A stretch of DNA of 64,000 bases from an uncultured Bacteroides sp. (lineage in GTDB: Bacteria > Bacteroidota > Bacteroidia > Bacteroidales > Bacteroidaceae): the NCBI RefSeq assembly GCF_963678845.2, contig NZ_CAXXOR010000005.1:251567-315566 (forward strand), written 5' to 3'. Positions 14,627 through 16,657 of the stretch are shown one piece after another (position 1 is the stretch's first letter; each line of letters opens with the position of its first letter). The notes under the pieces were generated by a model, which was not told where the DNA came from, ran no database searches, and saw only the letters and a program-made list of their open reading frames with translations. The position numbers and the translations under genes were made by a program.

Positions 14627-14820
14627 TGATTATCAGCAATATATTTATTCCGGTGGTGTAGATGGTGTACATAAATCGTTCTTTTTTCGTTCTGAAAAAT
14701 AAAATTCCGAGAATTCTGCAAATTGCGGATTTTTAAAAATTAATTTTCTGAAAGCTGAAAAAACTCTTTTTATGTACACCATCTACACCACTATCGGGCT
14801 TTCCTAGTTTAGTAAAGTAT
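14627..14820. repeat. 194-bp palindromic unit, copy 1
   Basis: Perfect 23-bp IR gtggtgtagatggtgtacataaa (14653-14675 / 14769-14791) around a 93-bp AT-rich core homologous to copy 2. Confidence 0.85.
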
Positions 14821-14963
14821 TGATTAATAAGCATGTATATTTTTATAGGTGGCAGATCCTATGTTTGCAATAAATATGCTGAAGTGAAAAAATAAGAAAC
14901 ATAAGCTAAGAGTATTTTTTATATTTGAGGTACCAAACTTAAACATTCAAATATTCAAAGCTT

Positions 14964-16043
14964 ATGCGTACACAAAGTAACAAAGTAAATTTCAATGGAG
15001 AAAATATTTATGTTGGAATTGATGTTCATCTAAAGAGTTGGGCAGTGACAATCTACACAGAACATTTGCATCATAAGACTTTTAGTCAGCCACCGGTTCC
15101 CATATTATTATGGAAATATCTGGATGAAAATTTTCCTGGTGGTAATTACTATTCTGCTTATGAAGCCGGATTCTGTGGATTTCATATTCACTTTGAACTG
15201 GAAAAGTTGAATATAAAAAATATAGTAGTCAATCCCGCTGACATACCGACCAGTCAAAAGGAACATGTGCATAAGAATGATTCTTGCGATAGCAAGAAAA
15301 TAGCCCGTTCTCTGAGAGCTAAAGAACTCACCGGAATACATATTCCATTGATTGAGACCTTAGAAAATCGTTCTTTAGTTCGTTCTCGAGAAATCTTGGT
15401 CAAGGATCTGGTTCGTTTCAAACAGCGAATAAAGTCTTTTCTTTATTTTTATGGGATAGCCTATCCTCCTGAATTTGAAAAGTCATCTTGTCATTGGTCA
15501 AAACGCTTTCTTAAATGGTTAAAAGAAATATCCCTAAATACGCAAAATGGAAATGAAGCATTATCCCTATTAATAAGAGAAGTAGAACAACAGCGCCTTC
15601 TTTTATTAGAAGTGAATAAGAAAATTCATAGCTTGGCTATTTCTGATAAATATATTAAAGAGATGGAATTAATAAGAAGTGTCCCCGGAATAGGCTTGAT
15701 TACAGGACTTACTTTTCTATTGGAAATAGAAAATATAGAGCGTTTTTCTAACACGGACAAGCTAGCCTGTTTTGTAGGAATAATACCGACTTGTCATTCG
15801 AGTGGAGAAACTAGTAATAATGGAGAAATGACCTTTAGAGGGCAAATCCATTTAAAGAAAGGTCTGATTGAAAGTGCTTGGGTTGCTTCAAGAATAGATC
15901 CAGCTCTAACACATAGCTTTATTAAGCTTTGCAAAAGAATGGAACCCAATAAGGCAATCATACGAATTGCGAGAAAGTTGTTAAACAGAATATATTATAC
16001 TCTAAAAAAGGAACATAAATACGAATATGGAATGGTTAAATAA
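14964..16043 (+). CDS. IS110-family DEDD recombinase/transposase
   Basis: YVGIDVH, AYEAG and KNDSCD give the D-E-D-D tetrad; SVPGIG HhH-like segment and PTCHSSG conserved Ser; 359 aa, no frameshift. Confidence 0.95.
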   Translation: MRTQSNKVNFNGENIYVGIDVHLKSWAVTIYTEHLHHKTFSQPPVPILLWKYLDENFPGGNYYSAYEAGFCGFHIHFELEKLNIKNIVVNPADIPTSQKEHVHKNDSCDSKKIARSLRAKELTGIHIPLIETLENRSLVRSREILVKDLVRFKQRIKSFLYFYGIAYPPEFEKSSCHWSKRFLKWLKEISLNTQNGNEALSLLIREVEQQRLLLLEVNKKIHSLAISDKYIKEMELIRSVPGIGLITGLTFLLEIENIERFSNTDKLACFVGIIPTCHSSGETSNNGEMTFRGQIHLKKGLIESAWVASRIDPALTHSFIKLCKRMEPNKAIIRIARKLLNRIYYTLKKEHKYEYGMVK

Positions 16044-16068
16044 TAATACCCATATAAAATCTGTATAA

Positions 16069-16205
16069 AGAGTGACCGCTAGCCACTTCTTGCAGCTTTG
16101 CCTGCTTTGGCAGATTGCGGCCTCTTTCCTATTGAACTGAAAAGGATTATGTAGAAACTGAAAGAATCAGTTAGAACTACTTATAGAAGGTTGTTTTATA
16201 TAGGA
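16069..16205 (+). ncRNA. Putative bridge/seekRNA core (target-binding loop 16069-16125, donor-binding loop 16126-16205)
   Basis: Two stem/internal-loop/hairpin domains whose loop segments match the reconstructed target and donor junction; transcript ends unknown. Confidence 0.75.
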
Positions 16206-16657
16206 ATTTACTAATTATTATTGAGACTAGAGAAACATGTATAATAGGTTTTTCTAGCCATATAGCGATATCTGTAACATAAAAAGAGGGGAAAATCATA
16301 CAGACTGTCCCCTCAAAATGATGTTACAGCGTAACGCAGGAAGTTTATTGCTGGCAAGTTGCTCCTCAGCAGAGCTTGTTTCCTCTTCAACTTCCTGATT
16401 ACAAAGCTAATAAAAAGTATAATAAATATTAATAATACTCTTATAATTTGGATTACAACATAGAAGCAGTGGCAGCAAAATAACACTTTTTCCGATTCTG
16501 AAAAATATATTTTGATAATTCCGCAAATTGCGGATTTTTAAAAATTTTATTTCTGGAAAGGTAAATAAGGCTTTTTTCCTGCCACTGCTACCACCTAATT
16601 AATTCAGCACAAACAAAATACCTTTGTCAAGGCAATAAAAATAAACCTTCGTTTTTA

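Follow-up and report, generated by a model that had tools for sequence, protein, structure and literature searches.

Origin-like palindromic units of Bacteroides: probable iterons of BT4734-like primase-helicases and a landing site of an IS1111-type insertion sequence

Two palindromic units at one locus

We analysed a 64,000-nucleotide stretch of DNA from an uncultured Bacteroides sp. (the window; positions 251,567–315,566 of contig NZ_CAXXOR010000005.1, assembly GCF_963678845.2), the genome holding it being referred to as G000. Two palindromic units, P1 and P2, lie there in tandem, each preceded by a flank motif (F1 and F2) and the pair preceded by a further non-coding module, H. P2 is split by an insertion sequence (IS) of the IS1111 type. 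The positions of all features are collected in Table 1.

A preliminary description of the sequence had reported a perfect 23-bp inverted repeat in the first copy, a 22/24 repeat in the reconstructed second copy and a 24-nt identical core recurring at a 194-bp period, all of which are present. The arms of P1 (14653–14675 and 14769–14791) are complementary at 23 of 23 nucleotides. Removal of the IS, joining 14846–14855 to 16467–16597, restores P2 as a 141-nt unit whose arms match at 22 of 24 positions. The 24 identical nucleotides lie at 14718–14741 in P1 and 16523–16546 in P2, and the offset of 1805 between the units less the 1611 of the IS gives the period. An intact counterpart of the split P2 site is found in a sister species and in the unit at C5:597934-598073 of G000. 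Both units fold far better than shuffled sequences (z about -9 to -10 (-9.9; relatives about -9.3 to -9.8), 0 of 200 shuffles being as good), and the predicted unit hairpins have energies of -52 to -65 kcal/mol.

Table 1. Features of the P1–P2 locus, in window coordinates.
Feature	Position	Strand	Content	Basis
H module	14396..14533	+	conserved leader (..AACCGG.ACTAATCA..AAGGTT..), 3 copies of ~17-nt AAACATGTACAAG motif, CCTCC..TAA tail	
F1 flank motif	14627..14652	+	TGATTATCA...TATATTT, ahead of P1, sets unit polarity	
P1	14653..14791	+	orphan, putatively origin-like unit, arm type GTA	inverted repeat, folding, family membership
P1 left candidate iteron 1	14655-14663		GGTGTAGAT	
P1 left candidate iteron 2	14664-14672		GGTGTACAT	
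P1 AT-rich core	14676-14768		93 bp, 27% G+C; central dyad TTCTGCA-N3-TGCGGA	
P1 right candidate iterons	14772-14789		inverted	
F2 flank motif	14821..14845	+	ahead of P2	
P2, left fragment	14846..14855	+	first left-arm candidate iteron TAGGTGGCAG, severed from remaining unit by IS	
IS1111-type IS	14856..16466	+	1611 bp	Pfam DEDD_Tnp_IS110 + Transposase_20
DEDD transposase gene	14964-16043			
IS 3' non-coding region	16044-16466			
Guide-like segment	16081-16087		AGCCACT, reverse complement of right flank AGTGGC	
Guide-like segment	16109-16113		GGCAG, identical to left flank	
P2, remainder	16467..16597	+	second left candidate iterons CAGTGGCAGC, AT-rich core (26% G+C), right arm	

A dispersed repeat family with four arm types

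P1 and P2 do not represent a local duplication; they belong to a repeat family dispersed in the genomes of a small set of environmental Bacteroides. Searches with nhmmer and BLAST recovered ~21 units from the 4.19-Mb genome, distributed over 13 loci (nhmmer E down to 1e-35). First and second units form tandem pairs at 7 loci, and in 4 of these pairs the second unit holds the same IS at an identical position; the other 6 loci have single units, of which one is truncated and another is accompanied by part of a second copy. Every unit is intergenic, with no consistent orientation relative to neighbouring genes. BLAST over 40 relatives gave almost nothing. With a covariance model made from 14 intact units, 18–20 or more matches were obtained in each of 8 species, out of 151 sampled from the genus; 150 genomes from other families of the order yielded a single weak match. 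The count thus disposes of the one-off duplication that the preliminary description had kept in reserve. An exact-pattern scan of named genomes placed the family in Bacteroides luti DSM 26991 and in several Bacteroidaceae/Bacteroidales metagenome-assembled genomes (MAGs), and a literature search found no published description of the P-unit repeat family.

Each arm consists of two head-to-tail 9-mers, GGTGnnnnn, followed by a run of A, and the right arm is the exact mirror of the left across a 93-bp core. The roughly 9-bp TGG periodicity noted earlier is hence real and is stated more exactly as this pair of 9-mers. The core (26–27% G+C) is loosely palindromic; two TTCTGRAA motifs in the same direction make it polar, and a dyad, TTCYGCA-N3-TGCRGAA, occupies its centre. 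Nearly all units share the flank motif TGATTAnnA...TATAttT, in agreement with the homologous upstream flanks described for the window pair. The units are polar as a whole, scoring about 120 versus 50 bits on the two strands with nhmmer. Among 85 distinct units from 8 or more genomes there are only four arm types (patterns GGTGTA(G/C)AT, GGTGGCAG(n), (G)GGTGGAG(n) and GGTGTCAG(n)), the first being type GTA, the third GGAG and the other two GGCAG and GTCAG, and the two-sided layout with two 9-mers per side is kept throughout.

The arms change while remaining paired. In the alignment of the 14 intact units, 94.8% of arm cells are paired, compared with 68.5% in shuffles. Both sides have changed in 14 of 18 pairs. 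None of 500 shuffles attained the covariation score, and controls in which the arms were slid gave at most 0.154 against 0.648. The columns are almost purely Watson–Crick, with 2–3 pair types at 12 of 17 positions. Mismatches in the arms are 13 G-T to 11 A-C, and those of the central dyad 31 T.G to 30 C.A. This absence of strand bias argues for a constraint on double-stranded DNA and not on a one-strand RNA. The earlier proposal, that arm sequences have changed without loss of symmetry and that selection acts on structure or on symmetric protein binding, is thus supported across the 85 units, and the changes are compensatory.

IS1111-type elements are not the only IS drawn to the family. Three insertions of an IS3-like element (ends ..TGGAGTAGCCAACTAAAAT..), spread over two species, lie in or beside P units and at positions that differ within the unit (G000 C5:200038-200928 and C5:745411-746301; G057 locus L142, around 894-967).

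Primase-helicase genes with matching tails adjoin the units

Two single units of G000 stand directly after genes of about 695 residues that are 95% identical to one another, and an HU-HIG gene follows each unit. Pfam assigns to these genes a BT4734-like_N domain (an archaeo-eukaryotic primase, AEP), a VapE-like helicase (1e-31) and DUF3874. We refer to BT4734-like primase-helicases of this architecture, AEP primase with a VirE/VapE helicase of the superfamily 3 (SF3) type and DUF3874, as VirEN, and to the subfamily tied to P units as J/K. The two G000 copies differ only over the last ~25 codons and the following unit. In all 15 J/K VirEN genes, from 8 species (2 in G000, the others in seven species), a P unit abuts or overlaps the stop codon. 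Moreover, among the 151 genomes of the genus the 8 with P units are precisely those with the subfamily (at least 73% identity), and in the other 143 the best match does not exceed 34%.

The last ~25 residues of these proteins come in four variants, which match the four arm types in 15 of 15 cases: ..RINGYTVYHICLKE goes with GGCAG (5 genes), ..R(V/I)KGKTVYNV.. with GTCAG (4 genes), ..YKGTTQY.VILKDWGGEGGEK with GGAG (3 genes) and ..RKSRGITQYEV.. with GTA (3 genes). On a maximum-likelihood tree of the first 640 residues the types are scattered, requiring 8 changes against 8.7 with shuffled labels, and VirEN paralogues within a genome are nearest neighbours in the tree, yet differ in tail and arms. 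Hence, tail and unit travel as one module. This comparative evidence points to each putative initiator being specific to its own iterons. In the GGAG type and in one GTA-type cassette, the VirEN open reading frame (ORF) enters the left arm, and the iterons encode the last residues of the protein (..DWGGEGGEK, ..DSGVHGVHK; G000 C3:729039-731138, L154, L155, L176).

The link extends beyond J/K. A second VirEN subfamily has GCTAGACT with ..VYR.. and GCTAGATC with ..VYQ.., R/Q co-varying with CT/TC, and all seven VirEN genes of the genome have their own 8-10-mer repeats, direct and inverted, within a few dozen bases downstream. Elsewhere in Bacteroides, BT4734-like genes with paralogue-specific iterons (for example GCTGTCAC/GCCGTCAC and TGAGAGCA) were seen at L179, L181, L183, L186-L188, L190-L193, L195-L197 and L199; a minority of such loci (L178, L182, L184, L185, L189, L198) have no visible iterons.

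The variable tail falls in a predicted winged-helix domain. In an AlphaFold (AF2) model of the last 140 residues, built from an alignment of the seven VirEN paralogues, only the last 70 residues are confident (pLDDT 84–91). These are predicted to fold as helix-strand-helix-helix-strand-strand, a winged-helix topology in which the wing and the last part of the recognition helix would be made up of the variable tail. The helicase part (residues 374–564) matches PDB entry 7PDS, the SaPI1 Rep1–DNA complex (PMC9371898), with a phmmer E of 1.1e-10, indicating homology to the Rep of this Staphylococcus aureus pathogenicity island (SaPI). VirEN also matches PHROG families annotated as DNA helicase/primase.

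The IS lies at the junction of two GGCAG 9-mers

The element that splits P2 has the features set out for IS1111 elements (PMC11187229), namely a DEDD transposase, a non-coding region downstream of its gene (423 nt, against 108 nt upstream), subterminal repeats, guide matches in the expected order and no target duplication. Its ends read CTATGTT..AAT / ATT..AACATAG + AAG, and are ambiguous by 2 nt owing to an AG at both junctions. The likeness to IS1111 elements with a seekRNA (PMC11187229) extends to the 3-bp right extension of the subterminal repeats and to the top-strand complement coming first. With these and the bridge-RNA IS110 elements (PMC11208160) it shares the DEDD transposase, a repeated target and the lack of any duplication beyond the shared AG. 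It differs in that the target here would be the initiator iteron pair of an origin-like element.

Six copies of the IS, at least 99.7% identical, are present in the genome. In five of them the insertion point separates the two 9-mers of a left arm of the GGCAG type, one such arm belonging to the unit beside the cognate VirEN gene; two IS ends occupy the same arm position in B. luti. The arm type of P2 is that of the primase-helicase gene at C1:916924-918999. A sister IS, 78% identical and with 12 copies (for example C1:736983-738592), resides in TAGTAGCAGAT sites, and TAGTAGCAGAT is the iteron found after another VirEN paralogue (C3:456658-458715). The guides of the sister are TAGTTTA, whose reverse complement matches its right flank TAAAC, and AGCAG-T, which matches the left flank plus the first IS base; the counterparts in the window element are AGCCACT, matching right flank AGTGGC in the same way, and GGCAG-A. 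Thus, the two IS differ at two short segments of an otherwise conserved 3' block exactly as their targets differ. Within a single genome, each of the two sisters is tuned to a different VirEN paralogue's iterons, which is a further difference from the known IS1111/IS110 cases. We predict that the IS selects the GGCAG arm through these two guide segments of its 3' non-coding region. That the IS targets the repeat, as had been suggested, is confirmed by the shared position in five of six copies, the B. luti ends and the matching guides. Passages in two reports name REP-type (repetitive extragenic palindrome) repeats as favoured targets of the IS110/IS1111 family (PMC1525189, PMC12288879).

Three insertions deserve separate mention. 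The one at C5:146326-147935, with unchanged guides, sits in a site of the sister-IS type (..GGTAGCAG|ATAAAAT..) and may be an off-target insertion or have been mobilized in trans by the RNA of the sister IS. The copy at C5:457457-460053 lies in a GGCAG arm and is broken by a further insertion of ~970 bp (BLAST pieces 1-1195 and 1183-1612). At L081 (MAG OY762866.2, about 149-280), the end of a related IS (..AACATAG) abuts the F motif TTGATTATCA and not an arm; the element may be a third relative with a changed target.

Orphan units and the composite element

Nineteen of the ~21 units of the genome (P1, P2 and 17 others) are orphans without an adjoining VirEN gene. The sole VirEN-like match on the window contig is weak and lies about 600 kb from the units, and the genome has no primase-helicase with a tail of the GTA type, the type of P1. 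Orphans are not peculiar to J/K. Three other VirEN paralogues, with iterons GCTAGATC, AGTGATGG/AGTGAGGG and TAGTAGCAGAT, have orphan families of 9–22 clusters each, spread genome-wide with iterons in both orientations, and in eight examples of the AGTGATGG and GCTAGATC families the orphans reproduce the whole gene-adjacent layout. Clusters of these other paralogues are found, for example, at C1:664649, C5:944406, C3:1242241 and C1:1653736.

The window pair is part of a composite non-coding element, H, F-P1, F-P2, which occurs at about 8 loci of the genome. The H modules form a repeat family of their own, based on AAACATGTACA(A/T)G motifs. Two of the AAACATGTACAAG copies in the window module are direct and one inverted, and together they form a 30-bp hairpin at 14434–14493. 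H and a spacer stand upstream of the window pair, and at most other loci the distance from H to the units is a few hundred bases or less. In the primase-helicase cassettes H also separates the P unit from the HU-HIG gene and so lies upstream of the latter, which suggests an operator or other protein-binding array. Two derivations of the composite were rejected. The F motif has no collinear similarity to the 3' end of VirEN genes, so it is not a relic of one; and H is not found upstream of J/K genes, so the composite is not a VirEN cassette minus its gene.

Three loci were followed across species. The composite of the window lies downstream of an S41 peptidase gene, at a site that is orthologous in five other species; H is almost invariant across 5 species there, while the adjoining coding 3' end diverges. 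A second locus (C3:183.8k) is also kept in four species. At both of these conserved loci P1 has switched between GTA and GGAG in some lineages, both arms and all four 9-mers having changed together. At the third, C5:837.6k (locus F), the pair is absent in five species. Locus F was considered as a clean insertion with an empty site, a view rejected on its mixed history of gene truncation and deletion, which gives no proof of mobility. At two loci the homology between G000 and genome G106 breaks exactly at the outer end of the right arm of P2; a gene truncation also belongs to the history of the second of these, so the breaks do not prove transposition. In genome G112, locus L141, the orthologue of window 14821–16620, has kept F2 and lacks P2; the interior of the left arm (..ATAGGTG) runs into the post-P2 flank GCACAAACAAAA..

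The arms as candidate initiator iterons

In the SaPI origins, iterons lie immediately downstream of the rep ORF, at least two on each side of an AT-rich middle and in opposite directions; they are read by the C-terminal winged-helix domain of Rep, and in SaPI5 the primase and Rep are fused as PriRep (PMC9371898). Gene-adjacent P units resemble this layout of SaPIs and of phage-inducible chromosomal islands (PICIs) point by point: the unit directly follows the ORF of a putative initiator, at least two opposed iterons flank each side of an AT-rich centre, an SF3-like helicase is fused to a primase as in PriRep, and different initiators go with different iterons. By this analogy the arms are most likely initiator iterons. 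At the level of sequence the gene-adjacent copies conform to the SaPI rep-ori arrangement, and the orphans, P1 and P2 among them, depart from it in having no adjoining gene. There are also differences. The host is Bacteroides, the primase is a BT4734-like AEP and the iterons are 9-mers instead of 5-6-mers. The cassettes are small islands without integrase or packaging genes. Most P units are orphans, arranged as heterotypic tandem pairs in a composite and kept at orthologous sites, for which the literature compared offers no SaPI counterpart.

A similar organization is known from the alpha protein of phage P4, which joins primase, helicase and a C-terminal origin-binding domain in one polypeptide and acts at ori and a distant crr, both with direct and inverted octamer iterons. 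VirEN resembles alpha in being a single primase-helicase polypeptide with a C-terminal, here predicted, DNA-binding domain. The difference is one of scale: P4 has two sites on one small replicon, and the P units number about twenty over a 4.2-Mb chromosome, with four specificities.

We consider it probable that P1 and P2 are two orphan members of an origin-like family whose arms are iterons of VirEN initiators, and that the IS lands, by means of its guide segments, at the junction of GGCAG iterons. In this scheme the iterons would be the sites of the C-terminal winged-helix domain of VirEN, which, by analogy with SaPI Rep and PriRep, would melt the core after loading at both of its flanks. Four tail variants would pair with four iteron types (GGCAG, GTCAG, GGAG and GTA), which would account for the arms and their 9-mers changing together and for there being only four arm types. 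The IS would read the junction of two GGCAG iterons through two short guides of a 3' non-coding RNA, and would have split P2 there. We infer both that VirEN binds the iterons and that the cassette copies fire as origins. The preliminary description had listed AT-rich origins left by a primase-encoding element among its candidates. The origin part of this idea gains from the adjacency and the arm–tail match, each in 15 of 15 genes; a derivation from such an element does not, since the orphans have no detectable gene leftovers (no collinear flank similarity).

Several observations weigh against this interpretation. Tail and arms are less than 100 bp apart, such that linkage alone could hold them together; sequence divergence would likewise halt gene conversion at the boundary between the two; and co-distribution inside one clade is not independent evidence. 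The C-terminal model as a whole is moderate (pLDDT 68). Its top Foldseek matches are winged-helix domains (RFX5, RAP74, F-93, TubR), none of them significant (best E = 0.09). The polar conserved motifs of the core, TTCTGRAA and the central dyad, are left unexplained by an origin. Furthermore, perfect arms are retained by orphans even where the genome encodes no matching protein. In G000 the tails are of the GGCAG and GGAG types only, yet there are 8 GTA and 2 GTCAG units; G052 has GTCAG tails only, yet GTA, GGAG and GGCAG units. Hence, arm integrity needs no resident cognate protein, and the orphans are either independent of a resident protein or served by one from elsewhere. Searches of phage records, viral contigs (IMG/VR) and plasmids gave neither P units nor close relatives of VirEN. 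Finally, harm would be expected if about twenty origins fired on one chromosome; the orphans may therefore be silent or have another role.

For the orphans themselves we offer a tentative and rather doubtful suggestion, that each BT4734-like paralogue keeps a private set of 10–20 dispersed origin-like palindromes on which VirEN would load in trans, a partnership like that of REPINs with RAYT transposases and centred on a replication initiator. Were this so, the orphans could bring about local over-replication or amplification of neighbouring genes, support replication restart or act as decoys that titrate the initiators of invaders, and IS1111-type guides would have evolved against iterons as a safe, repeated and conserved landing site.

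Alternative explanations

The palindromes might themselves be selfish or semi-domesticated elements, copied and spread by the primase-helicase much as REPINs are by RAYTs, with the gene-adjacent unit as master and the orphans as offspring. The likeness is real: in both, intergenic palindromes are dispersed in mosaics, the cognate gene is flanked by its own repeat, and subfamilies of protein and repeat are paired. At least four VirEN paralogue types each have one gene-adjacent element and 9–22 orphan clusters with the same iterons and layout; the orphans stop precisely where the gene would begin and hold no remnant of it; and the G106 breakpoints at the end of the P2 arm, the absence of the locus F pair from five other species and the arm-type switches at orthologous loci would all suit a spreading unit. 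We nevertheless regard this as unlikely. Neither a target-site duplication nor an empty/filled pair clean on both sides was found, locus F has a history that includes gene truncation and deletion, and two of the three tested loci are conserved in position over 5–6 species, implying slow turnover. We know of no mechanism by which a primase-helicase inserts DNA. The idea also overlaps with the reading of the arms as initiator iterons, since it requires the same recognition of iterons by protein. Less probable again is that the units are structural palindromes of the REP or BIME (bacterial interspersed mosaic element) type, serving as bidirectional terminators, mRNA stabilizers or supercoiling sites, with arm complementarity maintained by hairpin function or intra-strand templated repair and the link to VirEN reflecting the position of a terminator. 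All units are intergenic, their predicted hairpins are very stable, the mosaic of H, F, P1 and P2 modules recalls BIMEs, and the arms stay perfect where the cognate protein is missing. A hairpin constraint alone, however, does not explain why the two direct 9-mers of one arm change jointly, nor why 85 units have only four arm types, nor why these four correspond to the four tail variants. The units have a mostly poorly paired AT-rich core within their 139 nt, in contrast to the GC-rich hairpins of 20–40 nt of REPs; their orientation to neighbouring genes is inconsistent; and their partner is a primase-helicase, not a Y1/RAYT protein. No RAYT/Y1 transposase (PF01797) was matched in the 98%-complete genome, where controls were positive. 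A REP/RAYT system in the strict sense was rejected on the same grounds, ~21 units of 139 nt being unlike short, high-copy palindromes with GTAG/CGTC tags. An integron attC site was likewise rejected: a conserved centre with variable arms is the reverse of attC, in which R and L boxes enclose a variable centre. Nor was there an integrase among the neighbouring ORFs scanned with Pfam, which covered the locus in the window and those of the two VirEN cassettes; the other ten loci were placed relative to ORFs only. The undescribed REP/attC-like family of the preliminary description therefore survives only in the loose sense of a dispersed repeat family.

The two remaining explanations fare worse. 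A structured non-coding RNA gene, with F as its promoter and each unit giving a ~140-nt hairpin RNA, would fit the TAnnTTT-like box that stands in F a few bases before the left arm of many units, and the polarity of the units by strand. We judge it highly improbable. No Rfam 15 family reached threshold; matches to miRNA precursors scored 24–30 bits against gathering scores of 83–120, which is chance level. The mismatch counts given above show no excess of G-U over A-C on the strand that reads from F to P, either in the arms or in the central stem; the structured RNA listed among the earlier candidates gains no support. In the Bacteroides promoter consensus, TTG and the TA box are 19–21 nt apart, a spacing that the ~13 nt in F does not fit. 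Hardest of all to credit is a miniature transposable element with inverted repeats (MITE), in which the 23-nt arms would be terminal inverted repeats for a transposase encoded elsewhere. Terminal inverted repeats, small size and dispersed intergenic copies are as expected of a MITE, as is the presence/absence difference at locus F; yet a genome-wide scan found tandem 9-mer arms in P units alone, with no larger element bounded by them, there is no target-site duplication at the two resolved boundaries, and four types of terminal repeat on one shared core would require four transposases.

Implications and cassette neighbourhoods

New here are the families of chromosomal orphans, the four-way specificity code and the use of the units as targets of a putatively RNA-guided IS. 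BT4734-like primase-helicases, among the commonest unexplained multi-copy genes of Bacteroides, would gain a testable DNA partner in the paralogue-specific iteron element directly 3' of the gene. The pairing of tails with arms sets residues of the predicted wing against a 9-mer in a four-way natural specificity code. Dozens of orphan origin-like copies conserved across species raise the question of whether chromosomes hold conditional secondary initiation sites or decoys for initiators, and two sister RNA-guided IS retargeted to two iteron families would provide a natural case of seekRNA/bridge-RNA choice of safe repeated targets.

The two VirEN cassettes of G000 lie in small islands, L133 (C3:722000-740000) and L132 (C1:908000-926000), and no integrase or packaging genes adjoin them. 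One cassette is beside GmrSD and AbiEi/AbiEii, and BT4734-like primase-helicases have also been found beside defence systems (PMC11724360). The other is located between pentose-metabolism and TonB/TPR genes, with KilA-N.

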